A stretch of 35,803 nt of DNA from Chloroflexota bacterium. Its GTDB lineage: Bacteria > Chloroflexota > UBA6077 > JACCZL01. Position 1 is the first letter of the stretch; every line of letters starts with the position of its first letter. Positions 138 to 29,756 of the stretch are shown here, one piece after another. Below the pieces are notes generated by a model. That model was given only the letters and a program-made list of their open reading frames with translations. It was not told the origin of the DNA and did no database searches. The position numbers and the translations under genes were made by a program. The DNA lies in the NCBI GenBank assembly GCA_038318015.1, contig JBBQBU010000003.1, forward strand, positions 1-35,803. The letters are read 5' to 3'.

Positions 138-284
138 GTGCCATGAGCGGTGACGCCACGCGCCTGATCTCGCGCAGCAGTCTGAAGAATGCTGGGGCCT
201 GCAAGGGAATAACCGTTACACCCGGAGGCAGTCTGACTTCTTATGAAAGCGCCCTCTGATGAGACGGTTATCTCCTGACGAGTC

Positions 285-1196
285 CTAGCTGCGGAGAGCG
301 GCGACGGTTTGCGCCAGACCCTCATGAAGCGGCACCGTCGGTTCCCAGCCTAGGTCACGCCGCGCACGATCAATGGTGAAATAGGCAGCCCGCAGGTCGC
401 CAGGCCGGCGCGGCCCACGACGCGGCTCGACATCGACACCGACCGCATCACAGACCGCCCGAAAGATCTGGTTGACGGACGAGCCCACACCGGTGCCGAT
501 GCAATAGACGCGGTCGTCGCCGGCCGTCGCAGCGAGCAGGTTGGCCCGCGCTACGTCGGTCACGTGGACGTAATCACGCACCTGTTCGCCGTCCCAGTGG
601 ATCATCGGAGACTCGCCACTGAGCAGTTGGTTGGTGAATATGGCCACCACTCCGGCCTCGCCGAAGGCGTCCTGGCGCGGCCCGTACACGTTGCCGTAGC
701 GCAGCGCGGTATAGCGCAGGCCACGGTCGAGCGCGTAGTACTTGAGGTAGTGTTCGGCGACCATCTTCGTGATGCCGTAGGGAGATTCGGGCAACTGTGG
801 GTGATCCTCGTCGATGGGGAGGTACTGCGGATTGCCGTAGGTCGCCCCCGACGACGCAAAGATCACCTTCCGCACGCCGGCCGCAATGCACGACTCAAGC
901 ACGTTGACCAGCCCGAGCACGTTCACCTGGGCGTCGTAGCGCGGATCGTCCGTGGAAACCTTGACCGACATCTGCGCCGCCTCGTGGAAGACGACCTCCG
1001 GTCGTTCTGCCAACAGCACGGATGCAAAGTCCGAACTGACAACGTCCACCTCATGAAAGCGTGCCCGAAGATCAAGGTTGGAACGCTTGCCGGTCTTGAG
1101 ATTATCGGCTACGGCGACATCGTGCCCCTCGGCAAGCAGGAGTTCGACGATATGGGAGCCAATGAAACCGGCCCCACCAGTGACAAGCATCTTCAT
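285..1196 (-). CDS. NAD-dependent epimerase/dehydratase (UDP-glucose 4-epimerase-like extended SDR)
   Basis: 303 aa. TGGAGFIG Rossmann motif, ASSGATYG, catalytic [18 protein letters not shown]-like [12 protein letters not shown] and RRPGD. Confidence 0.93.
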
Positions 1197-1304
1197 GTTC
1201 GATCCGAACGTCGTTAGGCGACATGGCGGCTGATGAGTTGTGCTGAGAGCACGATCAGCCGGTGTCAGGGCTGATGGTCGAGTACCGCGAACGTGCGTTA
1301 GCCC

Positions 1305-2324
1305 TCAGGGCGGCCCCGGCGAAACGGCCTGCGCCTGCGCCTGTGCCTGCACGCCAATCCAGGGGATGGGCATGGACTTCACCGCTGAACACACGAGTTT
1401 CAGCAACGCATCCTGACTTGCGAGCAGCGTGTACAAGCGATCCGAGTTCGGGAGACGCTCAAACCGAACCAGTCCGCTGTCTACGGGCGCACTCCCAAGT
1501 TCCTCGGCAACCGAGTCGATAAATTCCGCTCCGGCTCCGCCCGCCGAATGCACGAACACGACGGGCACTCCGCGCTCGACGAGCTTTGAGGTCAGCCCGA
1601 CGACGATGTTCGAGATTTCCTTCGCCTGGTCGTCGCCGGGTAGCGGCAAGGCGACTTTTCGGGCCACGATATTCTTCAGGCGGAAGTACGTCGTCGTGAT
1701 CGCCCCACCGATGATCTCCTGCGTCACATTGCGGAAGATACTTCGGTAGTCGACCTTGCCAGTGACGAACCGCCTCCACCGTCCAGTGCTCTGAATCGCT
1801 CCATGCAGATAGTAGTTGCGGTAGAATTGGCTGTAGACGCGGTCCCGGTCGTAGCGGACCCAGCTGTCGTCGCCAGCCTCAATGTCCATTGCGATGACAC
1901 CATGAACGTAGGGTGCGTCATATGCGGCCAATAAGGAATGCCAGCCGCCCGAACAGTGTCCCATCAGCACGAAACCCTGGACGCCTCTCGCCCAGTGGAG
2001 CCAGGACATTGCGTCAACCGTATCCTTGACCGCACCGTACGGCCCTTCCAGGATCTCGCCGCGCTGGCGGCTTTCTCCGATGCCAGACAGGTCGAACCGC
2101 AGGACCACATGCCCCTGTTCGGCCAATGCACGGGCGAGCTTGACGTAGAGGCGATTCGGCCCTACCCGATTGATCAGGCCAGGATTCAGCAAAATGACCC
2201 CAGGCAAGTCGGAATCGCGGCGGCCTTCGGGCGGGTCCGTGATGATGCCAACCAGATTCTGCTCCTCGTGGCCGAAAAGCAGAACCTCCTCCGTGATCGT
2301 GACTGGTGACTGACTGGTATTCAC
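1305..2324 (-). CDS. Alpha/beta-hydrolase-fold protein, exosortase-A-associated hydrolase 1-like (Cys elbow)
   Basis: 339 aa. RVGPNRLYVKLARALA, LRFDLSGIGES, elbow GHCSG and YRNYY...RWRRFVTGKVD lid segment. The GTG start overlaps the upstream TGA (GTGA). The position where a catalytic His is expected reads NSDRLY. Confidence 0.8.
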   Translation of the reverse strand: MNTSQSPVTITEEVLLFGHEEQNLVGIITDPPEGRRDSDLPGVILLNPGLINRVGPNRLYVKLARALAEQGHVVLRFDLSGIGESRQRGEILEGPYGAVKDTVDAMSWLHWARGVQGFVLMGHCSGGWHSLLAAYDAPYVHGVIAMDIEAGDDSWVRYDRDRVYSQFYRNYYLHGAIQSTGRWRRFVTGKVDYRSIFRNVTQEIIGGAITTTYFRLKNIVARKVALPLPGDDQAKEISNIVVGLTSKLVERGVPVVFVHSAGGAGAEFIDSVAEELGSAPVDSGLVRFERLPNSDRLYTLLASQDALLKLVCSAVKSMPIPWIGVQAQAQAQAVSPGPP

Positions 2325-3145
2325 TCGCTTTGACTCGACATCCAGGTGACAATTGACTGAAGGGCCTGGTGCGGCACTAGGCCCTTGTCTGGGTCCTCTG
2401 CCCAGACGCTGAAGCCAGGGACGTACTCGTATACCACGTCAACATCCAGGGCCCGCAGATGGTCGCAGAGCCGCTCGACCTCAGGGTCACCCCGGCTGTC
2501 GAACACAAGCACGCTGCGTGCCGGCTTAGTGCCAATCGCCAGCAGATCGAGGGCGGTCAGCTCGTCGATCAAGCGATTATTCATCTTGACTCCGAGCAAC
2601 TCCGACGGCCTCTCGTTCGATTGCTCAACGGTTGGGCGGTCGAAGAAGTGACCCCAGAGCCGTTCCTGATGCTGGACCTTCATCTGCTCCAAGTATTCGC
2701 GGCCATGAATGATCGGATCCCAGAGGACCAGATGCATGACATCGCCGCGCTTCACGGCAGCCTGTAGGGCCAGCGCGGCACCGAGCCGCAACCCGACCAG
2801 GGTGATGTGGCGGCGGTGCATCGCGCGTCGAGTTTCCTCGATAGCGGTCGAAACGTCACCGATCCACCCGTTCAAGCTGGTGTCGTCGTCGCCTCCACCC
2901 GAGTCACCGGTCCCGAAATATTCGAAACGGCCGACCTGGAAGCCCTGACCAGCCAGACGGCTTGCCAGATGTAAGAAGGCCCGATGTGAATAGGCGTATT
3001 CCAATCCCAGCGGATTGCACAGGACTGCCACCGTCTCGCGCTCGGTACCGTCGCTCGGCGGGTGGGAGCAGCCATAGAGACGTCGTTCCGGAGGACCGAA
3101 GAAACCGGGCCAGCGGGTGCCAATCGTGAATCTAACGGGGTCCAT
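2321..3145 (-). CDS. Alpha/beta-hydrolase-fold protein, exosortase-A-associated hydrolase 2-like (no nucleophile: GLRLG)
   Basis: About 274 aa from ATG 3145, overlapping the NRPS end by 14 nt. VLCNPLGLEY, RFEYFGTGDSGG, elbow VGLRLGA and LVLWDPIIHGREYL. Confidence 0.8.
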   Translation of the reverse strand: MDPVRFTIGTRWPGFFGPPERRLYGCSHPPSDGTERETVAVLCNPLGLEYAYSHRAFLHLASRLAGQGFQVGRFEYFGTGDSGGGDDDTSLNGWIGDVSTAIEETRRAMHRRHITLVGLRLGAALALQAAVKRGDVMHLVLWDPIIHGREYLEQMKVQHQERLWGHFFDRPTVEQSNERPSELLGVKMNNRLIDELTALDLLAIGTKPARSVLVFDSRGDPEVERLCDHLRALDVDVVYEYVPGFSVWAEDPDKGLVPHQALQSIVTWMSSQSE

Positions 3146-6100
3146 TCGACCTGGGACCAATCAGGCGCTTGACAGCACTGAACATCTGGTTCGCCAGGCG
3201 CCCGCCTGGCTTGGGCTGCTCGGCCGCTGGCTGAGCAGCCTCCTTGCGCCGCTGGACCGCTTCGTAGATCGCGGCCACCTGCCCGAGGTTCTGCGTCACC
3301 ATGATCCCCACATTGAACCGAACCCCGGTCCGACGTTGGAGTTTGGCGTTGACCTTCATGGCCATCAGCGAATGGCCGCCCAGGTCGAAGAAGTTGTCGT
3401 GCCGGCCGACCTGCTGGATTTCAAGCGCTTCCCGCCAGATCTCCGCGATGATGATCTCCATTGGTGTCTTTGGCGGCTCGAAATCATCCTCAATAGTGGT
3501 CCCCTCTGGCGAGGGCAGTGCCAGACGATTGACCTTTCCATTGGGCGTCAACGGCAGCGCGCTGAGCATCACGAATACGCTCGGCACCATGAATTCAGGC
3601 AGTCGCTCACGCAGGAACGACCGCAGGTCCATGGAGCTCGGTGTATTGCCTTCGATCGGTACCACGTAGGCAACGAGCCGCGACTCCTGCCGTCGGTCAC
3701 GGTCAGCGATGACGACCACGTCACGGACGGTGGGGTGCTTTGCGAGCGCCGCTTCCACCTCACCCGGCTCCACGCGCGAGCCTCGGATCTTGACCTGGTT
3801 ATCGACCCGCCCGACGTATTCGATGTTGCCATCGGCACGGTACCGGGCGCGATCTCCGGTTCGGAACAGGCGCGCGCCCGGCTCGTCAAGAAAGGGGTTC
3901 TGAATGAACCGCTCAGCGGTCAGCGCTGGGCGGTCAAGATACCCCCGAGCCAGGTTCGCACCACCAACATACAGCTCCCCCGAAACGCCGATGGGGACGG
4001 GTTGACCCAACTCGTCAAGGATGTAAGTCTGCGTGTTCTGAATCGCGCGGCCAATCGGGATCGTGGTGAGCGACTCGAGATCGAGCGAGGTGGTATCGCA
4101 GCACGTGACGTCTGCGGCTAGCTCCGACGAACCGTACAGGTTGATCAAACGCACCGATGGCAAGATCGCTCGGAAGCGGCGCACCAACTCAACGGAGAGC
4201 GCCTCGCCGCTGGAAGTCCAGTGCTTGAGATGGGGCAACTTCTTCGCCAGATCTGGCTCGTTTTCGAGCAACGCATCCAGTAGCGAAGGGACCAACACAA
4301 ACCGCGTCACGTTGCTTGCGGCTAGCGTCTCCACCAGCGGACCAAAGTCTTTGACGACCTCGTCGGGGATGAGTACGACGGGCACGCCCTTCAGCAGTGG
4401 GCCGAACAACTCCCAGACTGCGTCAACGAAACTCAGGGTTGTCGTTAGACAGCACGTCTCACGGGGCATGAACGGGTACGCCTGCCACATCCAGGCAAAC
4501 CTATTCAGTGCACCTCGGTGCAATCCGAGCACACCCTTGGGGAGGCCCGTCGACCCCGAAGTGTAGAGGACGTAGGCGGCGCTCTCTGCTGTGGTGGAGG
4601 CGAGCGGATTCTCGGTGCTCTCACCCTCAATCACCAATAGGTCTCGGTCCAGAAACACCACCTGGGCATCTGCATCGGGCTCATGGCTGAGCAGCGCCTC
4701 GATTGTCAGGACGATGTGTGCCCGTGTATCGCGTAGCATGAAGGCCAGTCGATCAGACGGGTAGTTGGGATCGAGCGGCAGATACGTCCCGCCGGCTTTC
4801 AGGACGGCCAGGACGCTGACCACCAGATCAGTCGTTCGCGGAAGGAAGACCCCAACCCGCGTCTCCGGCTCTACGCCTATCCGAACCAGATAGTGCGCCA
4901 GCCGATTCGCCTGCTGGTTGAGTTCGCCGAACGTCATCGGGCCGGTTGACGAGTGCAGCGCGACGACGTCGGGCGTGGCTGCCACCTGCGCTTCGAACAG
5001 ATCCTGGATGCGCTGATCGTTGGGAAAGCTCGCCTCGGTCGCATTCCATTCGACCAGCAGCAGCTGCCGCTCGGACTCGGACATGAGTGGCAGTCGCGCG
5101 ATCTCCTGCTCGGGATCAGCGACTATGGCGGCAAGCAGGGACTCAATGTGCCCTTGCATCCGGACAATCGTCTCGCGATCAAACAGATCGGGGTTGTAGC
5201 GGAAGCGATACACCATGCCCCGCTCGGTTTCGAGCAGGTTCAGGAAGATGTCGGTTCCCTCTTCGGCCTGGTCAAGGTCGAAGCGCTGGACTTCCAGGCC
5301 AGCGACCGTGGTCGTCTTGTGGGTTGGGTCAAGGTGCAGCAGGAAACCGCCGAGTCGACTGAGGGTGTTGATGTTGAACGACACGTCGAAGAAGCGGTCG
5401 CGCTTGCTCCCGCTGTTAGCACGGAGTTCACTCACCACCATTGCCCAGGGGTAATCCTGGTTCTCAATGGCACTGAGTACCGTGGGGTGCATTTGCTGCA
5501 GGAGTTCGGCGAACGTCAACCCCGGCGTCAAGCTCGCCCGCATGAGGACGATATTGGCAAACACGCCAATGACTTCCTCGAACTCGGGGCGGGTACGGCC
5601 GCTCATCGGCGACGCCACGACGATGTCGTCCTGGCCGGTATACCGGTGGAGTTGGACGAAGAAGGCCGCCAGCAGGACGGTGTAGAGCGTCGTGCGATGC
5701 GCCCGGGCCACCTTGCGTAGCCGAACGACCAGCGCCTCATCCAGCGAGAATTCATGTCGGCGCGGCAAGAATTCCTTGTTCAGGACGCGTGGTCGATCAG
5801 TTGGCAGAGCAAGCTGTGGGACTTCACCACCGAGCTGCTGCTGCCAGTACGCGCGCTGTCGCTCGCCCTCCGGTCCGCTCAGCGTATCGGTCTGCCAGGT
5901 CCCAAAGTCGGTGTACTGCGCCTTCGGCGGCGCGAGCGGGTTGGGGCGACCGGCGGTTTCGGCCTCGTACAGATGGCGCAGTTCTTCGAGGAAGAATCCG
6001 AGAGACAGCCCGTCGAAGGCGATATGGTGAGCCACCGGGAACAGAATGTGATCGGTTTCCGAGCGGGTGAACAGTGTGACGCGCAGCACCGGCCCCTTTT

Positions 6101-6511
6101 CGAGGTCGAACTGACGAAGGTGCTCAGCATTGACATGCTTGCGAATCTGCTCGTCAGTCCACTGGCTCGTATCAACCTGCTCGAAATGCACTTCGGCCTG
6201 AGTGTGGACTTCCTGCATTGGCTCGCCAGCGAGCATCGTGTACGTCGTGCGGAACACTGCGTGGCGATCAACCATGCTCTGGAACGCACGCCGCAACGCC
6301 GCGACGTCCACTCGGGAGACGATCTGCATCGGGAACGGCACCGTCAGAGACAGGCTCTCCGGGTGCATCAGGTGGTTGTACCACCACTGCTGCTGCACTT
6401 GTGATTGAGGATGAACGGTCTTCGTATTCCCGAGTCGTTTTGCTAAGAGTTGGGCCGCCAACGCCCGCTTCTCATCGGCGGTCCAGGCACCAAGCTGAGC
6501 CTGTACGTCAG

Positions 6512-6515
<4 letters not shown>
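3132..6515 (-). CDS. Single-module NRPS (C-A-PCP), predicted beta-alanine-activating, with no TE or reductase
   Basis: 1127 aa. C domain HHIAFDG; A-domain motifs YTSGSTGLPKG, NLYGSSE, GELYVGG, FRTGD, QVKIRGSRVE, NGKV; PCP NFFDLGGHSL; then only a short C-terminal tail. The TTG start overlaps the PKS-C stop (TTGA). N-terminal docking-like helix WTADEKRALAAQLL. Confidence 0.95.
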
Positions 6516-12196
<5,681 letters not shown>

Positions 12197-12283
12197 AGTT
12201 ACCCTATGCGCCCCCCGCCACATTCCGGCCGAGCGCCAGATCAGCGCCTTGAGAACTCAGGAACCGACACTTACGCCACGCAT

Positions 12284-12292
12284 GTTATACCA
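12284..12292 (-). promoter_or_regulatory. Putative extended -10 promoter (TGgTATAAC) for the left operon
   Basis: Minus strand reads TGGTATAAC about 90 nt upstream of the PKS-C ATG, an AT-rich hexamer in GC-rich context. Confidence 0.45.
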
Positions 12293-12865
12293 AGCCCGGA
12301 AGACCGCGCCGTAAATTCCGCGCCTACCCTGATGCGGTGTCCCGGCTGACCACCTGGACTCGGAACGCCTCATCGCCAGCGCTCCGGAGAATGCGGCGTC
12401 ATCAGGCGGGATTGGTATTAGTTCGGCAAACGCATGTGGTACATACGCAGTCGGGGCGCGCCAGGAATCGAGCGCCCGCCGCCCATGGCCCGCATCGCCG
12501 CAGGCGAATATACTAGCGGAGCCAGATGACATTATGCCATCTGGCACGGTCTATGCGACAATTAGGCACCCTTCTTTTTAATGGCGCGTTGATCGTGACA
12601 GCAGGCACTCCACTTGGATGAGGCGACATTGGCGAGAGCTCAGGCAGTGGGATCGACCCGCTCGTTGCGAGCGGGGATGCGCACAGCAGGCCACGCCGGC
12701 CCAACGCCGTCGGCCAACATTGACGCACTCGACCAGCAGCCGCCACTCGGCTCTCGCCTGACGACCCACCGTACAGTCGAGCACCCACCTGCGTTACTCG
12801 ACTAGTCCGTCCGGCATCGTTGAGGCGGGTGTGGCACCGGCCTCTAACCTCCGAAGGTGGAATCC

Positions 12866-15800
12866 ATGACCGCGCACCCGTCCGACAGAACCGAGCGTCC
12901 TACTCCACCGTTTGCCCGTCCGGGCAACGAGTCGAAGCAGCCGGCCACGCAGCCGGAACCGATTGCAATCGTCGGCATCGGTTGTCGCTTTCCAGGTGGC
13001 GTTGACTCCCCGGACAGCTTCTGGAAGTTTCTCGTCGAGGGGCGGGATGCTATCACGGACATCCCGGCTAATCGCTTCGATCTCGAATCGACCGGCGACC
13101 CAGAATTGGCGACGACGGTCGAGGGGCGCACGCGGCGAGGCGGCTTCCTTGAACACCTCGATCAGTTCGACGCCCAGTTCTTCGGCATCTCGCCACGGGA
13201 AGCGGCACAGCTTGATCCACAGCAACGCTTGATGCTCGAAGTTGCCTGGGAGGCGCTCGAAGATGCGGGGCATCGGCCAGACCGGCTCGACGGCAAGCAC
13301 ACTGGCGTCTACGTCGGCGTGTGGGCTGGCGATCAGGAAGGACGGCTGGCTCAAGATGCAGCACCGTTCGACTTTTATAAGCACGTGGGGAGTGGCCGCT
13401 ATTTTGCGTCAGGCCGCGTCTCCTATGCGCTCGGACTCGAAGGCCCTAGCCTGACCCTGGACACCGGGTGTTCCTCATCGTTGGTTGCTGTCCATCTGGC
13501 CTGCCAGAGCCTGCGCGCGGGAGAATGTGATGTCGCGCTCGCCGGCGGCGTCAACGTCATCCTCCAACCGCACCTGACGGACGCACTCACGCAGGGCGGG
13601 ATTCTCAGTCCAGATGGACGGTGTAAGTTCGGGGATGCCCGGGCTGACGGCTACGTTCGTAGCGAAGGCGCGGCCGTCGTTGTCCTCAAGCCGCTTACGC
13701 AGGCACTGGCTGACGGTGATCCCATCTACGCCCTCATTCGCGGCGGCGCGGTCAGCAACGATGGACGGAGCAGTGGCTTCCTCGCCACGCCCGGCTCAGA
13801 GGGCCAGGAGGAGACGCTGCGGCGGGCCTATCGGAACGCGGGCGTGTCGCCGGGCAGCGTCGCGTACGTCGAGGCACACGGGACCGGCACCCGCGCTGGT
13901 GACCCGGTCGAACTGCGCGCGATCCATAACGTGTTCAGCGTCGACCGCCCGGCAGACTTGCCCTGCCTCGTCGGCTCGCACAAAACCAATTTTGGGCACA
14001 CTGAAGCTGCAGCTGGTGTGGCCGGGCTCATCAAAGTTGCGCTGGCAGTGAAGCACCGGGTGATCCCCGCCAGCCTGCACTTCTCCGAGCCGAATCCGGG
14101 CTTCAGGTGGGAAGGGTCGCCGGTGGTGATCCCCACCGCAGCGGTCCCCTGGCCGAGTGGGGTCGGGCCTGCACTGGCTGGGATCTCATCCATCGGCCTC
14201 GCGGGCACGAACGCGCATCTCGTGCTGGAGGAACCACCGATTCGGCAATCGGCGCAGGTCCGCACGGATGGCGGCGACCATGATCGGCCTCGCGTGCTGA
14301 CAGTTTCTGGGCACTCCCAGGGGGCGCTTAATGCGGCAGCTGCTCGGCTCCAGGCGTTCCTGGATGACACCGGGTCAGCGGACGTCGCGCTCGACGACAT
14401 TTGCTACACGGCCAACGTGCGCCGCGCGCAGCAAGAGCACCGGGGTGCCGTGGTGGCTCGTGATCGCGCCAGCCTCAGCGCGGGATTGGCTCACCTGGCT
14501 GCTGGCGAGATGGCATCAGGCGTAATCGTCGGACAGACCGGCGCAGACCGGCCAAAGGTCGCCTTTGTGTTCGCGGGGCAGGGTGCGCAGTGGCTGGGCA
14601 TGGGCCGACAGTTGCTGGCTGATGAGCCGGTCTTCCGGGCAGCTATCGAGCGCTGCTCCGCGGCGCTGGCACCGTTGCTCGACGGCTGGTCGCTCCTGGA
14701 AGAACTGACCGCCGACGAGGCCACCTCGAAGCTTGAGCGTATTGACGTGCAGCAGCCGGCCGTCTTTGCCGTTCAGGTGGCACTCGCCGAACTCTGGCGT
14801 TCCTGGGGCATCGAGCCAGCCGCCGTCGTCGGCCATAGCCTCGGGGAAGTGGCCGCAGCCCACGTAGCGGGGGCGCTGAGCCTGGAGGACGCCAGCCGCG
14901 TCGTGACGCTTCGGAGCAAGCTCCTCCGGAAGATCAGCGGGCAGGGTGCGATGGGCGTTGTCGGCCTCTCGATGGACGAGTGCCGTGAGATCCTTGTCGG
15001 CTACGAGGATCGCCTCTCCATCGGCGTGAGCAATAGTCCAAAGTCGACCGTCCTGTCCGGCGATCCCACCGCGTTGGACGAGGTCATGGCGGTAGTGCGG
15101 AACCGGGATGTGTTCTGTCGCCTGGTCAAGATCGACGCAGCCTCACACAGCCCGCAGACCGAGCCACTGCTGCCAGAACTGGCGGCCGGATTGGCGATGA
15201 TCAAGCCGCAGCCGGCCAAACTGCCGTTCTACTCAACGGTGACGGGCGCGATCTGTGAGGGCTTCCTCCACGACGGACACTACTGGACGCGCAACCTGCG
15301 CGAAACGGTGCTGTTCTCGACTGCGGTGGCGCGGCTGGTCGAGGACAACTTCGAAGTCTTCGTAGAGGTCAGCCCGCACCCGATCCTGGTCCAGCCAGTC
15401 GAGGCGACTGCCCATGCACACGGGCGCTCCGTCAAAGCCGTGCCCTCCTTGCAGCGATCGGGAGACGACTGGATGGTCATCCTGAGTTCGTTGGGGGCGC
15501 TCCACGTCGCCGGCTGCGCCGTTGACTGGACGCGGCTCTACCCGAACGATGGCACAGTCTGTTCTCTACCGACCTATGCCTGGCAGCGCGACCGCTATTG
15601 GTTCGACGCAAAGTCAGCGCCAACAGGTGTCGTGTCGTGGGCAGCGGAGGCCGGCGGTGAGCCTGCTTTGCACCCGTTGCTGGGCGCTCGCCTGCCGGAT
15701 CTCGCGGTGCTACCGGGCAGTGTGGTGTGGCAGCGCCCGCTAGATGAGCGTCTGGCGCGCAAGCTTCTCGGCGAGCAGGCTTCCGACGCGCCGCTGCCGT

Positions 15801-18097: not shown

Positions 18098-18105
18098 GAA
18101 GTTTT

Positions 18106-21100
18106 TTGAACGCAATCGACTACGAGTCCCGACTGCGGAGCGCACTGCAGACACTCCAGCGCATGAAGGCGCGCCTGGATGTTCTCGAAAAGCACGAGGT
18201 CCGGCGCACCGAGCCGATCGCGATCATCGGTGTCGGCTGTCGCTTTCCCGGAGGGGTCAACGACCTCGCCTCGTACTGGGATCTTCTGGCGAACGGCGTG
18301 GATGCCATCCGGGAGATCCCCGCTGATCGTTGGGATGCGGCTGCGTACTACAACGCTGATCCGGATGCGCCGGGCCAAATGAACACCCGTTGGGGTGGCT
18401 TCCTGGACCAGATTGACCAGTTCGACCCCGAGTTTTTCGGCATCGCGCCGCGCGAGGCCAGAAAGATGGACCCTCAGCAGCGGTTGCTCCTGGAAGTGGC
18501 GATCGAGGCGCTTGAGCACGCCGGCCAGCCCCAGGATCGGCTGGTCAATAGTCGGACCGGCGTCTTCATCGGGGTGACACTCAGTGACTACCTCCAGCTC
18601 CAGGCCGACATCGACCCTTCTGAAATCGATGCCTACCGTCTGACCGGCAACGTCCTCAACGCCACGGCTGGGCGGATCTCGTACTTGCTCGGCCTCCAGG
18701 GGCCGACCATCGCGCTTGACACTGCCTGCTCGTCGTCGCTGGTGTCGGTACACCTCGCGGTCCAGAGCCTGCGGTCCGGCGAGTGCGAAATGGCGCTGGC
18801 CGGCGGCGTCAACGCGGTACTGTCTCCCGAGTGGACGATCACGCTCTCGAAGAACCGGATGCTCTCCCCGACGGGGCGGTGTCATACCTTCGATGCGAGC
18901 GCCGATGGCCTTGTGCGTGGTGAGGGCTGCGGTCTGATCGTGCTCAAGCGGTTGTCGGATGCCCAGGCAGCCGGCGACAACATCCTGGGGCTGATTCGCG
19001 GCTCCGCCATCAACCATGATGGCCCGAAAAGCGGCTTCACGGTTCCGAATAAGCTAGCCCAGCAGGCGGTCATCAAAGACGCGCTGGCGAATGCTGGGGC
19101 GAGCCCGCTTGACATCGGGTATGTCGAGGCGCACGGCACCGGCACATCACTCGGTGACCCCATCGAGGTACGGGCGCTGGCTGCCGCGCTTGGTGAGGGG
19201 CGGACCGAGGAGCAGGCGCTGGTTCTCGGTTCGGTCAAGACCAACATTGGCCACCTCGAATCGGCGGCCGGCATCGCTGGTTTGATCAAGGCACTGCTCT
19301 GCCTTCAGCATCGCCAGATCCCGCCCCACCTGCACCTCCAGCAGCCGAGTCCCTTCATCGGCTGGGATGAGATGCCGATGATCGTGCCAACGGCGATGCG
19401 TGCCTGGCAGGCCGGTTCACACGGACAACTGGCCGGCACCAGTTCTTTTGGAGCTAGTGGAACCAACGCGCACGTGATCCTGGCAGCGGCCCCGGAGACG
19501 ACCCACGAAGCCGTGCCGGCAGCCGAGCCAACTGATGCGGCCTGGCTACTCCCGATCTCAGCCCACAACTCGGCTGCGCTTCAGGCTCGCGCCGAGCTTT
19601 TCCGAGACCTGCTGGCCGATGAAGCGCAGCAGATCTCGCTGCGCGACCTCTGCTACACCGCCAGCCGGCGTCGTGCGCACCTCGATCAGCGGCTGGCGGT
19701 CTGGGGATCGACTCGCCAGGAACTGGCGGAGCACCTGGGCCGATTTGCCCGTGGCGAGGATTCTGATGGCGTCGCGAGTGGCCGGCTCGATCCAGGCCAG
19801 ACACCCCGCGTCGTCTTCGTCTGCGCTGGTCAGGGTCCGCAATGGTGGGCGATGGGACGTGACCTAGCGGCGCGCGAACCGGTCTTTCGGGCGGCGCTAG
19901 AGCGCTGCGACGCGTTGCTGCGCCCACTGAGCGGCTGGTCGCTGCTTGATGAATTGGGACGGAGCGAGGCTGACTCGCGTATTAACGAGACTGAGGTGGC
20001 TCAGCCGGCTCTCGTCTCCCTGCAGATTGCGCTGAGCGAGCTCTGGCGTTCGTGGGGCATCATCCCGGACGCCGTGGTCGGGCACAGCGTCGGTGAAGTC
20101 GCGGCGGCCCAGATCGCCGGCGTGCTGAGCCTGGAAGATGCCATCCACATCGTGTACCAGCGCGGCCGACTGATGCAACGGGCGACCGGGCACGGTAAAA
20201 TGGCCTCAGTCGAGTTGTCGGAAACCGATGCGCTCGCCGCAATAGCGCCGTGGGGCGAGCGGATATCGGTTGCGGTGGCAAACAGTCCGTCTAACAGCGT
20301 GCTGTCCGGAGAGCCGTCCGCCGTGCAAGCAGTGCTGGCTGTGCTTGAGCAGCGGGGCGTGCGCTGTCGACTGTTGCAGGTCGAATACGCCTCGCACAGC
20401 ACGCAGATGGCACCGTATCAGACCGAGCTTGTGGAATTGCTGCGTGATGTGAAGCCACGCGCGGCGAGGATGCCGCTCATCTCGACGGTGACGGGCGCGC
20501 AGGTCAGCGGTCTGGAGCTTGACGCCGGGTACTGGGGCCGAAACCTCCGCCAGTCGGTCCGCTTCGCCTCGGCGATGACCCATCTGATTTCCGAAGGCTA
20601 CGATACGTTCCTGGAAGTCGCTCCACACCCAGTCCTTACGCCGTCGATTGAAGCGTGTTTGGCTGACGCCGAGCGACCAGGAGCCGTGCTGCTGTCTCTG
20701 CAGCGCGGCCGGCCTGAACGGGAGACGATGCTGACGGCACTGGGCCAACTCTACGCACGCGGCCTACGGCCAGATTGGGAGCCGCTCACCGCCGGCGGAC
20801 ATGCTATCGATTTGCCGGCCTACCCCTGGAAGCGGCGCCGCTTCTGGCTGGAGCCGTCCGACCGGTCAACTCGCCAGACCGCTGTCCGTGCAGGCGCCGA
20901 TGCCGAGCACCCGCTGCTTGGTCGTCGGGTACGCTCCCCGATGGTCGAGGGGACGTTGTTCGAGGCTGAACTGCGTGCTGAGCGGCCGGGGTTCATCGGT
21001 GACCACGAAGTGGTCGAAGTCGTGGTCTTGCCCGGGACCGCCTATCTAGAGATAGCGTTGGCCGGTGCGGAAGCGGCATTTGGGACTGGATCACACACAC

Positions 21101-24100
21101 TCGAGGCGGTCGCGCTGGAAGAGGCGATGGTCCTGCCCGAGGGCGGTGTCCGAACCGTCCAGTTCCACCTCGATGAGCCGCAGGCCGGTTCAGCGGGCTG
21201 GCAGCTTTACGGATCAGTCGACGGTGACCGCTGGACCCGACATGCCAGCGGCACCGTCCGCCTCAATGGAGCCGGCCTGGGGGTGAGCGATCAGTTCCGC
21301 CCGGAGGAGGTTCAGAACCGCTGCCCTGACGAGATGGCGGCTGACCTCCTCTATGCCAACCTGCGTGAACGCGGCCTGGGCCTCGGCGCCCGCTTCCGTG
21401 GCGTCGAGCGGATCTGGCGCGGCCAGGACGAAGTGCTCGGTCGGATAGTACGGCCGGAAGCATTGGCGGAGGACGTCCTCCCATACCGCTTTCATCCCGC
21501 GCTGCTCGATGCTTGTCTCCAGGTAGCCGCTGCCGCCTGGCCGGGCGATGGAGCGATGTTCCTGCCGGTGGGGCTTGAGAGCCTGAGCGTGTTTCAGGCT
21601 CCCGGGGAACAGCTCTGGTGTCACGCGACGTTGCGCCCGCAGGCCGCCGGTAACAACGAAACACACACGGCTGACTTGCGTGTCTCCACGCTGTCCGGTG
21701 CGCTCGTCGCGATGCTGAGGGGTGTCAGCTTCAAGCGAGTTGAGCACGGCGTGCTCGTGCGTCTGCTGACCGGGACTGGTGCCCGCTTCAACGATTGGCT
21801 GTACGAGGTCGCGTGGCGTCCCGTGGGCAACCTTGCATCTGCGGCCCCCACGGCCAGCGACGATCTGCCAGCACCCCGCGTGCTAGTCAATGCCGCGGCC
21901 CGGTCGTGGCCTGAGATTCGCCGTCGGTGCGATCTCGCGCACTACGAGCAACTGGTGCCGGCGCTCGATGCGCTGAGTACGACCCACGCTGTTCTGGCGC
22001 TCCGAGAACTCGGTTGCCCGCTGCAACGCGGGCAGCGGTTCTCGACGCACACGCTTGCTGAACAGCTTGGCATCCAGCCCCGTCATCTGCGAGAGCTTGC
22101 TCGGCTGCTGCAGTTCTTGGAAGAGGATGGCGTGCTTCGCCGCGTTGGTGACTCCTGGGAAGTCATCGCTGAGCCGACCGTCATTGATCTCGGCCCGGCC
22201 TGGGCAGCCCTACGCGCCAAGTACCCGGCGGCGCGCGGCGAGATCGACTTGACTGAGCGCTGCGGTCAGCATCTGGCCGAAGCTCTGACCGGCCGAGCCG
22301 ATCCGCTGCAACTCCTGTTTCCGGGCGGTTCTCTCGACACCGCCGAGCATCTCTACCAGGACTCACCGGTGCTGAAGGCCTACAATACGGTGCTGCAAGA
22401 GGTCGTGCACGGCGTGGTGGCGGCGCACGCTTCTAGTCGGCGGCTTCGGGTGCTTGAGATTGGGGCGGGCACCGGCGGAACGGCATCACACCTGTTGCCG
22501 CTGCTGCCGGCTGACCAGACCGAGTACGTCTTCACGGACGTGTCGGTGCTGTTCCTGGCGCGCGCCGAGGAAAAATTCAGCACGTATCCGTTCGTCCGCT
22601 ACCAACTGCTCGATATCGGCCGCGATCCCACTGCACAAGGTCTTGCTGCAGAGCAATTTGACATCGTCGTGGCGTCAAACGTGCTGCATGCGACCGCCGA
22701 TCTTCAAGAGACGCTCAGCCACGCGCGAACGCTTTTGGCGGCCGGAGGGCTGTTGCTCCTGCTGGAGAACACCAGCCGTCAGCGCTGGGCAGACCTCACC
22801 TTTGGATTGACCGAAGGCTGGTGGGCCTTCCAGGACAAGGAGTTGCGGCCCGACTACCCGCTCATCAGCGGTGAGGCGTGGCTTGTGCTGCTTGGGCGTG
22901 TCGGCTTCGAAGGCGCGGTGGCGGCTCCCGGTCTTTCTCAGTCGGGTGGGACGGTACTCCAACAGGTCTTCATCGCGCAGGCTCCGCACACGCCCGCATC
23001 GACGGCATTGGCTCCGAACTCGGCCCCTGGCGGTTGGCTGATTCTGGCTGACAGCAATGGCGTTGGCGAGCGGTTAGCTGCTGCGGTCACGTCGCGCGGT
23101 GAACCGAGCGTTCTCGTCAGACCTGGTCCGTCCTTCGCTGAAATTGCACCGGGGCGATGGGAAATTGACCCCAGCAACAGTGCCGACTTCGAGCGTCTGG
23201 TGCGCTCGGGTTCTCAGTGGCGCGGAGTCGTTTTTCTCTGGGGGGAGGGCGCCGCACCCGCAGATCGCACAACCGTCGCTAGCCTTGAGCAAGATGGACG
23301 GCTGGGCACCGGCGGCGCGCTGCAACTCGTCCAGGCACTCGTGAAACATGCAGACGGTGAAACACCACGTCTATTCCTGGTGACGCGTGGCGCGCAGCCA
23401 ATCGGAGTACCCGACGTTCTGAATATCGCCCAATCGCCACTGTGGGGCTTCGGCCGGGCTGTTGATCTCGAACATCCAGAGCTACGATGTGTCCGCATCG
23501 ATCTCGATCCCGCACCCGAGGCCGACGTCGTGCCAGCCCTGCTGGCTGAGGTGCGCAGTCCAGATACCGAGAACCAGATCGGTCACCGTGGCGGACAGCG
23601 CTTCGCGCCACGACTCGTACGGCGTGAGTCGCTCCCTCCTGCCCCCACTGCCGTTGCCGAGCAGGCCATCCGCCTCACGATCCCTGAGCCTGGCGCGCTT
23701 GACCGCATGGTGCTCGAACCAGAAACGCGGCGTCCGCCTGGCCCCGGTGAGGTCGAGGTTCGTGTCCGGGCAATCGGTCTGAACTTCCGCGACGTACTCG
23801 TGGCGCTTGGGATGCTCGAGGGGCCGGTGGCCGAGGAACCGATTGGGTACGACTGCGCCGGTGACATCGTGTCTGTCGGTGCAGGAGTGACTGCGTTTCG
23901 GATCGGCGATGCGGTGTTTGGGACGGCCCGTGGCTGCATGGGTACCTACGTCACGGCGCCGGCCGCACCACTCATTGCCAAGCCGGACTCCCTGACTTTT
24001 GAAGATGCCGCAGCGATTCCAAGCGCCTACTTGACGGCCTACTATGGGCTGCACACGTTGGCAGGCCTCAAGGCTGGCGAGCGCGTGTTGATCCACGCTG

Positions 24101-25926
24101 CGGCCGGTGGTGTCGGGTTGGCGGCGGTGCAAATCGCCAAATGGGCCGGAGCCGAGATCTTCGCAACCGCCGGCAGCCCCGAGAAGCGTGCGTATCTGGC
24201 GTCGCTGGGCGTCCAGCACATCATGAATTCGCGATCACTAGAGTTTGCCAATGAGGTCAAGGCGTTGACCGGCGGTCGCGGGGTCGATGTGGTCTTGAAC
24301 TCGCTGGCTGGCGACTTCATCACCAAGAGCATGGAGGCCCTGGCGGAGGATGGGCGCTTCATCGAACTTGGCCGGACCGGCGTCTGGACGCACGACCAGG
24401 CCGCAGCGGTCAAGCCACGCGCCACCTACCACGATCCAGAGTTGATCGATGAGGTCGCAGGTAACCCCGGGCTGATCGCTACGCTGCTCCAGGAGTTGGT
24501 GGCGTTGTTCGACGCGGGAGCGCTCCAACTGCTACCCCGCCGAGATTTTGTGCTCACCGACGCCGAGAGCGCCTTTCGGTACATGGCGCAGGCACGGCAC
24601 ATCGGGAAGATCGTGCTCACGCCGCCAGCTCCGGTCAGTCACTCCGAAGACGGGCAGCCAACGGTGCGGCCAGATGGCACGTACCTCGTGACGGGCGGAC
24701 TTCGTGGGCTGGGGCCGTTAATCGCCCGGCGGCTGGCGGAGCAAGGGGCACGGACCCTGGCACTGGCCGGCCGGCGCGAGCCAGACGAGGACACGCGTGC
24801 CTTGATTGCGGCGCTGGAGGGCCAGGGTGTCCGCGTCGAGGTCATACAGGCTGACGTGTCACAGGCAGCCGATGTGGCGCGGCTGCTGGCTACCATCGAC
24901 CAGACAATGCCGCCCCTACGTGGCATCGTCCACAGTGCGGGGGTGCTCGATGATGGCGTGGTGCTCCAGCAGAATTGGGACCGCTTCCGAACCGTCATGG
25001 CACCAAAGGTTGACGGTTCCTGGCTCCTGCACACCTTGACGACGGGCCGCGAGCTGGACTTCTTCGTCCTCTTCTCGACCTCCGTAGCGGTACTCGGGGC
25101 GGCCGGACAGAGCAACCACGCGGCGGCGAACGCCTTCCTAGACGCACTCGCGCACCATCGTCGGGCGCTCGGCCTGCCTGCATCGAGCATCAACTGGGGT
25201 CCCTGGACCGAGGTGGGCGCTGCCTCTGGGCGGAGCATTAGTGAGCACCTTGCCGCCCAGGGCTACGGTGGCATTCCGGTCGAAGTCGGCCTCGATCTGT
25301 TCTCTGGCCTTCTCAGCGACTCGCCCACCCAGGTTGCAGTTCTGCCAATCCAGTGGTCTCGTTATCTGGGTCGGTCAGAGGGGCGTCGCAACGATCCCTT
25401 CTTCTCATCCATGGTTGTGGAGCATGCGGTTGCGCTGGCGGCACCAGGGGCGGCTGCTCTCGAATCGGCGGCACCCGCAAGCCAGCCGCGCATCCTTCGC
25501 GATCTGGCCGACGCGACGCCCACTCGCCAGCGCTCCCTGCTGATCGAGTACGTGCAAGAACGGGCCGCTGGTGTCCTCGGAGCGGACGCTTCCCAACTGG
25601 ATGCCCGCCGTCCACTCAATGAGTTGGGGCTGGACTCGTTGACTGCGGTGGAACTCCGAAACCTGCTCAGCCGGGGCCTTGATCTCAAGCGTCCGCTCCC
25701 GGCCACGCTGGTCTTTGACTACCCGACTGTCGAGGCCATAGCCGACTATCTGGCCCGCGACGCACTCGCCTTGGCACCCGTCGCGGTACCAGCGGGTGCA
25801 GCGGAAGTGACTCCGGCTCCCGCTGCACAGCGCGGTGGTGAGGTGACATCGCTGCTCGACAACCTCGACGACCTGTCTGACGAGGATGTCGAGCAGCTTC
25901 TGGCCGAGCGTCTAGGCGGCGGATAG
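18106..25926 (+). CDS. Type I cis-AT PKS module PKS-B: dock-KS-AT-DH-cMT-ER-KR-ACP-dock
   Basis: 2606 aa, TTG start after AGGAAG. KS DTACSSS/HGTGT/KTNIGH; AT GHSVG with YASH; DH HEVVEVVVLP and HPALLDACLQ; C-methyltransferase LEIGAGTGG and SNVLHAT; ER IHAAAGGVG; KR GGLRGLG, VLDD, GQSNHAAAN; ACP LGLDSL; C-terminal LDDLSDEDVEQLL. Confidence 0.96.
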   Translation: MNAIDYESRLRSALQTLQRMKARLDVLEKHEVRRTEPIAIIGVGCRFPGGVNDLASYWDLLANGVDAIREIPADRWDAAAYYNADPDAPGQMNTRWGGFLDQIDQFDPEFFGIAPREARKMDPQQRLLLEVAIEALEHAGQPQDRLVNSRTGVFIGVTLSDYLQLQADIDPSEIDAYRLTGNVLNATAGRISYLLGLQGPTIALDTACSSSLVSVHLAVQSLRSGECEMALAGGVNAVLSPEWTITLSKNRMLSPTGRCHTFDASADGLVRGEGCGLIVLKRLSDAQAAGDNILGLIRGSAINHDGPKSGFTVPNKLAQQAVIKDALANAGASPLDIGYVEAHGTGTSLGDPIEVRALAAALGEGRTEEQALVLGSVKTNIGHLESAAGIAGLIKALLCLQHRQIPPHLHLQQPSPFIGWDEMPMIVPTAMRAWQAGSHGQLAGTSSFGASGTNAHVILAAAPETTHEAVPAAEPTDAAWLLPISAHNSAALQARAELFRDLLADEAQQISLRDLCYTASRRRAHLDQRLAVWGSTRQELAEHLGRFARGEDSDGVASGRLDPGQTPRVVFVCAGQGPQWWAMGRDLAAREPVFRAALERCDALLRPLSGWSLLDELGRSEADSRINETEVAQPALVSLQIALSELWRSWGIIPDAVVGHSVGEVAAAQIAGVLSLEDAIHIVYQRGRLMQRATGHGKMASVELSETDALAAIAPWGERISVAVANSPSNSVLSGEPSAVQAVLAVLEQRGVRCRLLQVEYASHSTQMAPYQTELVELLRDVKPRAARMPLISTVTGAQVSGLELDAGYWGRNLRQSVRFASAMTHLISEGYDTFLEVAPHPVLTPSIEACLADAERPGAVLLSLQRGRPERETMLTALGQLYARGLRPDWEPLTAGGHAIDLPAYPWKRRRFWLEPSDRSTRQTAVRAGADAEHPLLGRRVRSPMVEGTLFEAELRAERPGFIGDHEVVEVVVLPGTAYLEIALAGAEAAFGTGSHTLEAVALEEAMVLPEGGVRTVQFHLDEPQAGSAGWQLYGSVDGDRWTRHASGTVRLNGAGLGVSDQFRPEEVQNRCPDEMAADLLYANLRERGLGLGARFRGVERIWRGQDEVLGRIVRPEALAEDVLPYRFHPALLDACLQVAAAAWPGDGAMFLPVGLESLSVFQAPGEQLWCHATLRPQAAGNNETHTADLRVSTLSGALVAMLRGVSFKRVEHGVLVRLLTGTGARFNDWLYEVAWRPVGNLASAAPTASDDLPAPRVLVNAAARSWPEIRRRCDLAHYEQLVPALDALSTTHAVLALRELGCPLQRGQRFSTHTLAEQLGIQPRHLRELARLLQFLEEDGVLRRVGDSWEVIAEPTVIDLGPAWAALRAKYPAARGEIDLTERCGQHLAEALTGRADPLQLLFPGGSLDTAEHLYQDSPVLKAYNTVLQEVVHGVVAAHASSRRLRVLEIGAGTGGTASHLLPLLPADQTEYVFTDVSVLFLARAEEKFSTYPFVRYQLLDIGRDPTAQGLAAEQFDIVVASNVLHATADLQETLSHARTLLAAGGLLLLLENTSRQRWADLTFGLTEGWWAFQDKELRPDYPLISGEAWLVLLGRVGFEGAVAAPGLSQSGGTVLQQVFIAQAPHTPASTALAPNSAPGGWLILADSNGVGERLAAAVTSRGEPSVLVRPGPSFAEIAPGRWEIDPSNSADFERLVRSGSQWRGVVFLWGEGAAPADRTTVASLEQDGRLGTGGALQLVQALVKHADGETPRLFLVTRGAQPIGVPDVLNIAQSPLWGFGRAVDLEHPELRCVRIDLDPAPEADVVPALLAEVRSPDTENQIGHRGGQRFAPRLVRRESLPPAPTAVAEQAIRLTIPEPGALDRMVLEPETRRPPGPGEVEVRVRAIGLNFRDVLVALGMLEGPVAEEPIGYDCAGDIVSVGAGVTAFRIGDAVFGTARGCMGTYVTAPAAPLIAKPDSLTFEDAAAIPSAYLTAYYGLHTLAGLKAGERVLIHAAAGGVGLAAVQIAKWAGAEIFATAGSPEKRAYLASLGVQHIMNSRSLEFANEVKALTGGRGVDVVLNSLAGDFITKSMEALAEDGRFIELGRTGVWTHDQAAAVKPRATYHDPELIDEVAGNPGLIATLLQELVALFDAGALQLLPRRDFVLTDAESAFRYMAQARHIGKIVLTPPAPVSHSEDGQPTVRPDGTYLVTGGLRGLGPLIARRLAEQGARTLALAGRREPDEDTRALIAALEGQGVRVEVIQADVSQAADVARLLATIDQTMPPLRGIVHSAGVLDDGVVLQQNWDRFRTVMAPKVDGSWLLHTLTTGRELDFFVLFSTSVAVLGAAGQSNHAAANAFLDALAHHRRALGLPASSINWGPWTEVGAASGRSISEHLAAQGYGGIPVEVGLDLFSGLLSDSPTQVAVLPIQWSRYLGRSEGRRNDPFFSSMVVEHAVALAAPGAAALESAAPASQPRILRDLADATPTRQRSLLIEYVQERAAGVLGADASQLDARRPLNELGLDSLTAVELRNLLSRGLDLKRPLPATLVFDYPTVEAIADYLARDALALAPVAVPAGAAEVTPAPAAQRGGEVTSLLDNLDDLSDEDVEQLLAERLGGG

Positions 25927-25934
25927 GGGGAAGA

Positions 25935-26723
25935 TTAAGGCATCAGCCGGGCGGACGGCGGCACCACCCCTGCCAGCGAGCGGTTGATCTCGGTCAACAG
26001 CTCCTGGCGGGCGGTTTGGAGGTAGAAGTGGCCGCCAGGAAACAACTTCGGCTCCTTAGGCTTCGTGGTATGGATCGCCCAGCCCATCAGGTCCGTAACG
26101 GGAACGCTGGTGTCGTCGATTCCACCGAACACGCTGATCGGGCAATCGAGCGGCTCCTCCTCAACCCACGAGTGGGTCTCGAAGATCTTCACGTCAGCCC
26201 GCAGAATCGGCATATACAGGCTGAGCATCTCGGGATCCTGGCGAATGAGATCCGGGATGCCGTTGTAGCGCCGCGCTAGTTCGTCCAGGAACATCTCGTC
26301 AGGCAGGCTGTGGATCGGCCCGAACCTCGGCGGCAAATGCGGTGCACGGCGCGCGGAGATGAAGAGGTGGGCCGGTTGCAGCCCGTAGCGCCGTCGCAAC
26401 GTCCGCACAAGTTCAAAGCCAACCAGCCCGCCGAGGCTATGCCCGAAGATCGCGAACGGCTCTTTAAGGTAGCCGGCCAGCGCTTCAGCCAGTTGCTCGA
26501 TCAAGGTGTCCATCTGATTCAGCGGTGTCTCGCGCAGGCGGTTCTCGCGCCCCGGTAGCTGGATCGGACACAACTCGATCTCTGGCGGCAACAGCCGTGC
26601 CCAGGAAAAATATTGAGACGCGCCGCCACCAGCGTTCGGCAGACAGAGGAGCGGCATTCCGCCCCGATGCGCTTTGTGCGGGCGAGCGAACCAGGCTTCG
26701 ACGAATGGAACGGGTACGGTCAA
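25935..26723 (-). CDS. Type II (editing) thioesterase
   Basis: 262 aa. LCLPNAGGGAS, IQLPGRENR, GHSLG, PILRAD and FPGGHFY. Convergent with PKS-B, with only 8 bp between the stops. Confidence 0.93.
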   Translation of the reverse strand: MTVPVPFVEAWFARPHKAHRGGMPLLCLPNAGGGASQYFSWARLLPPEIELCPIQLPGRENRLRETPLNQMDTLIEQLAEALAGYLKEPFAIFGHSLGGLVGFELVRTLRRRYGLQPAHLFISARRAPHLPPRFGPIHSLPDEMFLDELARRYNGIPDLIRQDPEMLSLYMPILRADVKIFETHSWVEEEPLDCPISVFGGIDDTSVPVTDLMGWAIHTTKPKEPKLFPGGHFYLQTARQELLTEINRSLAGVVPPSARLMP

Positions 26724-29751: not shown

Positions 29752-29756
29752 CAGAA

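Follow-up and report, generated by a model that had tools for sequence, protein, structure and literature searches.

How does a chain leave the carrier protein on which it has been built? Chain release sets the product of an assembly line, be it an acid, a macrocycle, an amide or a conjugate, and genome-mining tools predict products from this step. Thioesterase (TE) domains of the ObiF type use a Cys. The polyhydroxyalkanoate (PHA) synthase PhaC/PhaE, a two-subunit enzyme of alpha/beta fold with a Cys nucleophile in a G-x-C-x-G elbow and an obligate partner, takes a thioester substrate and transfers it rather than hydrolysing it, and its partner subunit is no paralogue with an alpha/beta fold. 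When DltA/DltC/DltB/DltD D-alanylate teichoic acids and when NodF/NodE/NodA acylate Nod factors, the route runs from adenylating enzyme to carrier protein, to transferase and then to sugar polymer. According to the pertinent passage of PMC7293339, which cites Craig et al. (2011), N-acyl amino acid synthase (NAS) genes are linked to exosortase/exopolysaccharide (EPS) loci. Closest to the proteins treated here are the exosortase-A-associated hydrolases 1 and 2, represented by the families TIGR03100 and TIGR03101. Here, we analyze a stretch of 35,803 nucleotides from a Chloroflexota bacterium (GenBank assembly GCA_038318015.1, contig JBBQBU010000003.1), hereafter called the window, which encodes a hybrid line of polyketide synthases (PKSs) and a nonribosomal peptide synthetase (NRPS) without a TE domain and, at the end of this line, a pair of alpha/beta-hydrolase-fold proteins, hyd2 and hyd1.

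We consider it fairly probable that this TE-less line is released by hyd2 and hyd1 acting together as a two-subunit, Cys-dependent offloading module in the position of a TE. Genes of the line and of the pair are listed below; families here and in the following were assigned by Pfam and NCBIfam scans of the 14 open reading frames (ORFs) of the window.

12857-18097, plus strand: pksA, KS-AT-(DH remnant)-KR-ACP, by family scan
18106-25926, plus strand: pksB, KS-AT-DH-cMT-ER-KR-ACP (cMT, C-methyltransferase), by family scan
6512-12223, minus strand: pksC, KS-AT-DH-KR-ACP, by family scan
3132-6515, minus strand: NRPS of the form C-A-PCP, matching Condensation, AMP-binding and PP-binding
2321-3160, minus strand: hyd2, alpha/beta-hydrolase fold, Hydrolase_4; TIGR03101 at 93.7 bits against a cut-off of 202.75
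1305-2324, minus strand: hyd1, alpha/beta-hydrolase fold, Abhydrolase_1; TIGR03100 at 82.9 bits against a cut-off of 168.45

On the minus strand the order is pksC, NRPS, hyd2, hyd1 and then a GalE-like gene, while pksA and pksB diverge from pksC on the plus strand. By their ORF coordinates, start and stop codons overlap at the pksC/NRPS, NRPS/hyd2 (by 14-29 nt, according to which start is taken) and hyd2/hyd1 junctions. In the mechanism that we propose, pksA, pksB and pksC would lengthen a starter acyl group by three ketide units, with a methyl branch on at least one, and C-A-PCP would then add beta-alanine or a very similar beta-amino acid to give N-acyl-beta-alanyl-S-PCP. hyd2, with Arg in the place of the nucleophile, would occupy the TE site beside the carrier protein and bind hyd1, whose Cys, the sole nucleophile of the pair, would take over the chain as a thioester and hand it to an acceptor. 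We infer all three of the acyl-S-Cys intermediate, the adaptor role of hyd2 and the acceptor. As for this acceptor in the subclade to which the window belongs, something sugar-linked or a glycan is slightly favoured over water, and each of the two falls short of an even chance. Transfer to a glycan is thus plausible but unproven, and the case for it comes from the genes around the pair in a minority of related loci and not from the epimerase and the glycosyltransferase of the window itself.

What distinguishes this pair from ordinary hydrolases is its nucleophile elbow. In alignments to solved esterases in the PDB, C124 of hyd1 (in GHCSG) and R125 of hyd2 (in GLRLG) fall on the Ser of the GxSxG elbow. 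For comparison, 80 loci were collected from contigs of one genome per species, together with L012 from the same genus and, in addition, loci from metagenomes; neighbour counts below refer to 109 related loci. The hyd1 elbow reads G-x-C-x-G in all 81 loci of the first two sets, and that of hyd2 reads G-x-R-x-G in 77 of the 78 loci in which hyd2 was found, with Trp in the remaining one; the Cys and Arg elbows are therefore not a peculiarity of the source genome. A profile of hyd2 matched 26,485, 11,388 and 4,894 representatives at E<=0.001, 1e-10 and 1e-30, respectively, in a library of 1.84 billion proteins, and of the 165 domains aligned from the top 150 of these 4,894 representatives, 148 have Arg and 13 have Cys in the elbow column, the latter being attributed to hyd1 halves of fused proteins. 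Other invariant residues of hyd2 besides R125 are H59, R60, the GTGDS loop and W147-x-P149, and a C-terminal His is not conserved in it. AlphaFold2 models of hyd1 and hyd2 have mean predicted local distance difference test (pLDDT) values of 81.6 and 89.2, and fold searches with both against the PDB returned generic esterases, lipases and dehalogenases only, at template modelling (TM) scores of 0.4-0.7, with no specific functional lead. The pair is found at the ends of NRPS/PKS lines in Chloroflexota, Planctomycetota, Acidobacteriota, Gemmatimonadota, Calditrichota, Myxococcota and other, mostly uncultured phyla. The names carried by homologues and by related loci indicate Chloroflexota/Anaerolineae. 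A genome of the same genus (G001) has a second assembly line that ends in NRPS-hyd2-hyd1, with 37-43% identity. With the single protein as query, a scan of metagenomes gave no relative; a second one, with an alignment of close homologues, gave 29 loci, among which L095 is the only close orthologue (73% identity).

How strict is the pairing? Among the 70 loci with at least 4 kb of sequence upstream of hyd1, hyd2 lies immediately 5′ of hyd1 in 66, in 28 of which the two form a single ORF, and the PCP end of an NRPS directly precedes the pair in 32 of the 70. A single ORF combining hyd2 and hyd1 was counted in 32 loci. Fusions also join hyd2 to the carrier protein: C-A-PCP-Hydrolase_4 occurs as one ORF in L019, L061, L023 and L036 according to Pfam, and 45 longer proteins matching hyd2 comprise seven C-A-PCP-hyd2, five A-PCP-hyd2, three PKS fragments ending in ACP-hyd2, and 30 with hydrolase domains only, whose 530-632 amino acids are the length expected of hyd2-hyd1 fusions. 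Structure prediction of the complex gave interaction prediction scores from aligned errors (ipSAE) of 0.89, 0.90 and 0.89 for hyd2 with hyd1 and at best 0.01 for three controls; the mark applied to this score is reached by 58 of 80 solved complexes and by 2 of 110 mismatched pairs. Agreement of contacts among the runs was at least 54%, and pLDDT of the partners at least 69. The predicted interface is made of the most conserved loops, namely residues 52-63 and 83-91 of hyd2, and 49-58 (GLINRVGPNR) and 293-304 of hyd1, the last of which bears the conserved His of the family. No similar solved complex was found, the PDB matches being generic esterases, so the prediction is unlikely to echo a known structure. 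The two proteins are thus predicted to form a heterodimer. A quick maximum-likelihood tree was made of 78 hyd1 rows, that is, the window and 77 of 110 loci, after rows with a tblastn match of fewer than 270 query residues had been dropped. One branch in it, with a Shimodaira-Hasegawa-like approximate likelihood ratio test (SH-aLRT) value of 100, splits 24 fused rows from 35 assembly-line rows, and the window sits with L095 in a mostly Chloroflexota clade of 15 rows.

Two unusual arrangements were seen among the related loci. L016, on a contig of 3.2 kb, has the order hyd1, hyd2, hyd1 (1-2759), with the extra hyd1 upstream of the pair. L068, on a scaffold of Exilibacterium tricleocarpae, has two fused hyd2-hyd1 genes about 4 kb apart, followed by a stand-alone ORF resembling adenylating ligases (9032-19379).

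The line itself is a hybrid of cis-AT type I PKS and NRPS: KS-AT-ACP modules with the active Cys in the KS of pksA, pksB and pksC are joined by a C-A-PCP module having HHxxxDG (HHIAFDG in the C domain) and the Ser attachment site (GGHSL in the PCP). Neither a TE nor a reductase domain was matched in any of the megasynthases by Pfam or NCBIfam. Neither hyd1 nor hyd2 matches PF00975, and their elbows are Cys and Arg, so that a Ser-Asp-His triad is not found in them. Because pksA has no N-terminal docking-like helix, it is probably the first module, and pksC is probably the last PKS module, feeding the C domain of the NRPS. A loading domain is not present in any of the three, and the product can therefore not be said to carry a short acyl chain, as a preliminary description of the window had put it. 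The DH-like region of pksA lacks the His of HxxxGxxxxP. AT motifs of pksA (AASH) and pksC (FAAH) differ from the usual malonyl and methylmalonyl forms alike; the YASH motif in the AT of pksB, together with its C-methyltransferase, makes methyl branching likely.

Which amino acid is added? The specificity code of the A domain was read as VDWSTSLADK, its positions being mapped through alignment to LgrA and through what we take to be the GrsA numbering. In Table 1 of PMC3777966, VDATVSIADK is given as the code for beta-Ala, the entry itself being a prediction, and the two agree at 6 of 10 positions, including V235/D236 and A330/D331/K517. The A domain thus probably activates beta-alanine or a close beta-amino acid, and the earlier proposal of beta-alanine is a reasonable one as far as this table goes. 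A literature search for the specificity code found no papers. In other phyla, A domains of loci carrying the pair often read DIL..G....K in pairwise alignments (L012, L017, L020, L037, L039, L041, L043, L048, L053, L058, L064, L077, L083, L086, L091, L092 and L097), which we assume to be a glycine-like pattern. Together with beta-alanine here, these codes hint at a preference of the pair for chains whose last amino acid is small and free of a side chain.

A further peculiarity was noticed in pksB: near residue 2335 its KR has NHAAAN against YAAAN in the other two KRs, so that the expected catalytic Tyr is His, in spite of the DH, ER and cMT domains of this module.

To which known proteins is the pair related? 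TIGR03100 for hyd1 and TIGR03101 for hyd2 are the best NCBIfam families, and the ESM Atlas clusters nearest hyd2 are named exosortase A-associated hydrolase 2. Both scores stay below the curated cut-offs, and no match to XrtA (TIGR03109) was found at E<=0.001 in the source genome, which is 89% complete. The resemblance to exosortase-associated hydrolases suggested before is therefore borne out by best matches, by the elbows and by gene order, and not by membership in these families. TIGR03101 exceeds its cut-off in 14 of 81 genomes of a betaproteobacterial order, eight loci of which served for comparison with true exosortase-type pairs; the unpublished G071 enters this count and no other result. 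Hydrolase 1 has GLCDA in all seven that could be aligned, and hydrolase 2 has GLR.G in five of six. One of these loci encodes, in order, a ligase of TIGR03098 (808 bits, divergent), an ORF of 83 amino acids with a marginal match to PP-binding (20.5 bits against a threshold of 20.8), hydrolase 2 (318 bits), hydrolase 1 (350 bits) and an Asn-synthase-like amidotransferase, and Wzy_C, DegT and a sugar-transfer ATP-grasp gene are found near it. The shared order and elbows point to a common unit of adenylating enzyme, carrier protein, hyd2 and hyd1. It is to be noted that the Cys/Arg-elbow hallmark, common to the window pair and the true pairs, was derived here and has no published definition. Judging from these sequences, the pair is an assembly-line branch of a superfamily that includes exosortase-A-associated hydrolases 2 and 1, and this kinship is real and deeper than is visible from the sequence of the window alone. 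Five genomes, proteobacterial and Gemmatimonadota, that carry fused pairs were considered as further holders of TIGR03100 and rejected, since none exceeds the cut-off, and a fused protein of Ideonella was rejected as a member for the same reason.

Other genes of the window are as follows.

285-1196, minus strand: GalE-like extended short-chain dehydrogenase/reductase (SDR) of the UDP-hexose 4-epimerase type (PF01370, 206.8 bits), its membership in the cluster being uncertain
25935-26723, minus strand: type II TE (TEII; PF00975, 140.3 bits) with GHSLG
26787-28679, minus strand: CocE/NonD-family hydrolase (TIGR00976, 343.3 bits, above cut-off), upstream of TEII on the same strand
29029-29751, minus strand: Methyltransf_24-type methyltransferase (PF13578, 68.8 bits), a possible tailoring enzyme
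29751-30341: ORF of 196 amino acids rich in Arg, Ser and Pro, overlapping the propeller ORF and perhaps no real gene
within 29972-33850, between the PKS cluster and GT1: DUF7948/SBBP beta-propeller protein of 1055 amino acids
within 29972-33850, between the PKS cluster and GT1: ORF of 231 amino acids with a hydrophobic N-terminus and no family
34090-35370, plus strand: GT1 glycosyltransferase with an EryCIII-like C-terminal and a Glyco_transf_28 N-terminal domain

In gene content the preliminary description was accurate: three single-module PKSs and a C-A-PCP NRPS without TE or reductase, the overlapping hydrolase pair, the GalE-like gene after it, and Methyltransf_24 and GT1 genes nearby were all recovered where it had placed them, and in line with its statement that the window has no exporter, none of the 14 scanned ORFs matched a transporter family. 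The CocE/NonD and TEII genes converge on pksB and are preceded by the Methyltransf_24 gene; the CocE/NonD protein aligns with cocaine esterase in the PDB at 119 bits. GT1 is set apart from the PKS genes by the beta-propeller gene, and its link to the cluster is unproven. No Rfam family was matched in the window at gathering thresholds, and a scan of positions 1-3300 for promoters and terminators found sites no more numerous than in shuffled sequence.

The window is an entire contig (C3) of a fragmented assembly of 6.14 Mb in 824 contigs, with 67% G+C and 89% completeness, and comparison with other contigs of the genome places both of its ends within dispersed repeats; the cluster may therefore be truncated 284 bp past the epimerase. 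At the left end, a repeat of about 92 bp (195-287) directly follows the stop codon of the epimerase and recurs with 94-99% identity on at least 12 other contigs, and contig C154 begins with 50 bases identical to positions 89-138. These two matches probably explain the break of the assembly. An extension of the cluster at this end was tried with them and rejected, since they gave no unique join. At the right end, about 30 other contigs share, at 100% identity, an element of 41 bp (35504-35544); positions 35584-35803 match contig C442 with 98% identity, and an open-ended ORF from 35657 is presumably, by its look, the start of an insertion sequence (IS) transposase.

Does the pair act on sugars? 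The epimerase itself scores 201.9 bits against TIGR01179 (cut-off 262.3), its motifs GGAGFIG and YGITK are visible, and its best relatives in the PDB are short UDP-glucose 4-epimerases (300.8 bits for 4zrm, then 247.9 and 234.6 bits). It starts 108 nt after hyd1 and may be the first of a set of sugar-related genes cut by the contig end in the repeat. Among related loci, the order in L019 is PKS, C-A-PCP-hyd2, hyd1, Wzm, Wzt with a Wzt_C domain, an Asn-synthase-like gene, GT4 and a regulator; L015 has TEII, phosphopantetheinyl transferase (PPTase), hyd2, hyd1, an Asn-synthase-like gene and Wzx; and in L099 a Wzx-like gene is accompanied by one for a polysaccharide pyruvyl transferase. These three and L097 all belong to the 15-row clade of the window, and polysaccharide-positive loci as a whole fall mostly in its own subclade. 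Polysaccharide deacetylase and GT4 are found in L022 and L030, a GalE-like gene and GT4 in L034, and a CapD-like gene in L027. When the first two ORFs after hyd1 were taken from assembly-line loci, ORFs of more than 900 amino acids being left out, the most frequent families in the resulting 85 were Glycos_transf_1 (5), Polysacc_synt/Wzx (4) and Glyco_transf_4 (4), and next thioesterase, PPTase, sulfotransferase and ABC-2 (3 each). TEII homologues directly follow hyd1 in 11 of the 109 related loci. Wzm/Wzt-like genes 43-44% identical to those of L019 also exist on contig C234 of the source genome (about 4169-6146) and were rejected as evidence, since nothing ties this contig to the window.

Several observations weigh against release by the pair in general or against a glycan acceptor in particular. 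The window encodes two other enzymes that might free the chain as well, TEII and the CocE/NonD hydrolase. The hyd1 of the window, which is without a His conserved elsewhere in the family, may be inactive or may work differently. For assembly-line loci that extend at least 3 kb past hyd1, seed tblastn searches located polysaccharide genes in the 6 kb after it in 9 of 35, against 2 of 28 for fused-type loci, a comparison that is not a proper control; the remaining 26 assembly-line loci had no polysaccharide-type seed match, which argues against a general link to glycans, although the seeds were few and the count is therefore a lower bound. The check named in the preliminary description, whether homologous loci occur together with polysaccharide genes, is nonetheless partly positive, with L015, L019 and L099 among the nine. 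The groups of the tree were defined by the same context that was later counted, so that the tree shows clustering only. The epimerase is one of at least 11 GalE-like paralogues in the source genome and could therefore lie next to hyd1 by chance. A homologue of it stands beside hyd1 (within 49 bp) in only 1 of the 109 loci, L034, and 2.6-6.4 kb away in four fused-type loci, and it was found in none of the other 104. A GDSL lipase and genes of unrelated metabolism come after hyd1 in the same-genus cluster of G001, with no epimerase beside it, and the contig of L095 stops 71 bp after hyd1, which makes it uninformative on this point. Homologues of GT1, Methyltransf_24 and CocE/NonD were absent from all 109 loci. 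The epimerase, which the preliminary description had placed at the end of the line, is not a conserved partner of the pair. Finally, biochemistry on any member of the superfamily was not found in searchable papers.

Could the pair simply hydrolyse? It might be a split, trans-acting thioesterase that hydrolyses the thioester to give free N-acyl-beta-alanine, a lipoamino acid serving as surfactant or signal, with the epimerase and GT1 as unrelated neighbours. This is possible, though clearly less likely than an offloading module whose acceptor is left unspecified. Esterases and lipases are the structures nearest to both proteins, which share the alpha/beta-hydrolase fold, hyd2 is in the TE position, and the poor conservation of the epimerase and GT1, the surroundings of hyd1 in G001 and the many assembly-line loci without a downstream polysaccharide match all agree with such hydrolysis. 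However, a plain hydrolase would have no need of a strictly conserved second subunit free of a nucleophile, the invariant residue is Cys and not Ser, and sister branches of the superfamily are located in polysaccharide loci. Moreover, it is in the very subclade of the window that Wzm/Wzt, Wzx, GT4 and Asn-synthase-like genes stand directly 3′ of hyd1 (L015, L019, L097 and L099).

Or is the pair of the window dead, a scaffold or relic beside which TEII or the CocE/NonD hydrolase releases the chain? The conserved His of hyd1 belongs to a D/N-H motif that follows the last strand, where a catalytic His is normally found, and 58 of 58 other covered loci have it; in the window this position is R296, in SDRLYT. 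Given also that hyd2 is without a nucleophile, that TEII with intact GHSLG and the CocE/NonD hydrolase are encoded close by, and that the latter is seen at this cluster only, loss of activity is conceivable. R296 is kept, however, in 13 of 14 homologues at 54-81% identity, and it co-varies perfectly with H129, a clade-specific residue five positions past Cys124: all 13 have both, while the single homologue with His296 has Gln129. The same residues occupy both positions in L095, the nearest orthologous locus. Cys124 and the remaining invariant motifs are intact, and the overlapping start and stop codons have been kept. Because of this co-variation, we put forward the hypothesis that H129/R296 is a relocated catalytic residue under selection and not decay, and death of the pair appears improbable to us. 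That the pair and the epimerase belong to a neighbouring polysaccharide locus unrelated to the assembly line is close to refuted, since the exosortase-associated best families and the sugar-nucleotide type of the epimerase are outweighed by the overlapping coding regions of NRPS, hyd2 and hyd1, by the fusion of hyd2 to PCP or ACP in 15 of the 45 longer proteins and in four loci, and by the 32 of 70 loci, from many phyla, in which an NRPS ends just before the pair.

The main result, then, is a widespread module in which an invariant Cys subunit and a partner with an Arg elbow take the place of the TE. No paper on NRPS-linked exosortase-type hydrolases was found in an open-access collection of 8.4 million papers, one of which mentions TIGR03100, as an annotation only, though some characterised cluster may yet carry this pair. 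Should the two-subunit offloading module do no more than hydrolyse, it would be a split thioesterase of a new kind. Transfer to sugars, if true, would connect machinery of secondary metabolism with envelope polysaccharides, and the long-unexplained ligase, acyl carrier protein (ACP) and hydrolase genes of exosortase A loci would gain a testable function. Tentatively, one may go further and imagine hyd2/hyd1 as a widespread two-subunit acyltransferase, consisting of a Cys subunit and a pseudo-enzyme adaptor with an Arg elbow, which would take chains from carrier proteins, be they acyl, aminoacyl or polyketide-peptide, and place them on glycans or glycolipids that leave the cell by Wzm/Wzt or Wzx pathways. 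The exosortase-A pair would then do the same job, and the products of such lines would serve as envelope decoration or polysaccharide caps instead of being free metabolites.

How does such a module compare with systems already described? The exosortase A hydrolases 2 and 1 are alike in superfamily, in the order of hyd2 then hyd1, in the Cys/Arg elbows and in their place behind an adenylating enzyme and a carrier protein, and an Asn-synthase-like gene lies 3′ of hyd1 both in the true exosortase locus and in L015, L019 and L097. In the exosortase A system, however, the carrier is a small PP-binding-like ORF, while in the window it is the last domain of a PKS-NRPS line, and the window pair scores far under the curated cut-offs in a genome where no XrtA was found. 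A canonical TE (PF00975) shares the alpha/beta-hydrolase fold, the place behind the last carrier protein and a presumed acyl-enzyme. In contrast to it, the window pair splits the function over two proteins, has Arg instead of the nucleophile in the subunit on the carrier side, and is accompanied by a separate TEII. NAS is alike in its predicted product, an N-acyl amino acid, and the release enzymes of the window are kin of exosortase-locus proteins; NAS, however, is a single acyltransferase using acyl-ACP, whereas the amide bond here would be made by the C domain of the NRPS. PHA synthase resembles the pair in its G-x-C-x-G elbow, thioester substrate and two-subunit make-up, and no link to it appeared among the listed matches of the fold searches. 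With the Dlt and Nod systems the likeness is one of logic, in that an activated acyl group would travel over a carrier protein to its acceptor in each of them, and a sequence relationship to the window pair is not to be expected.

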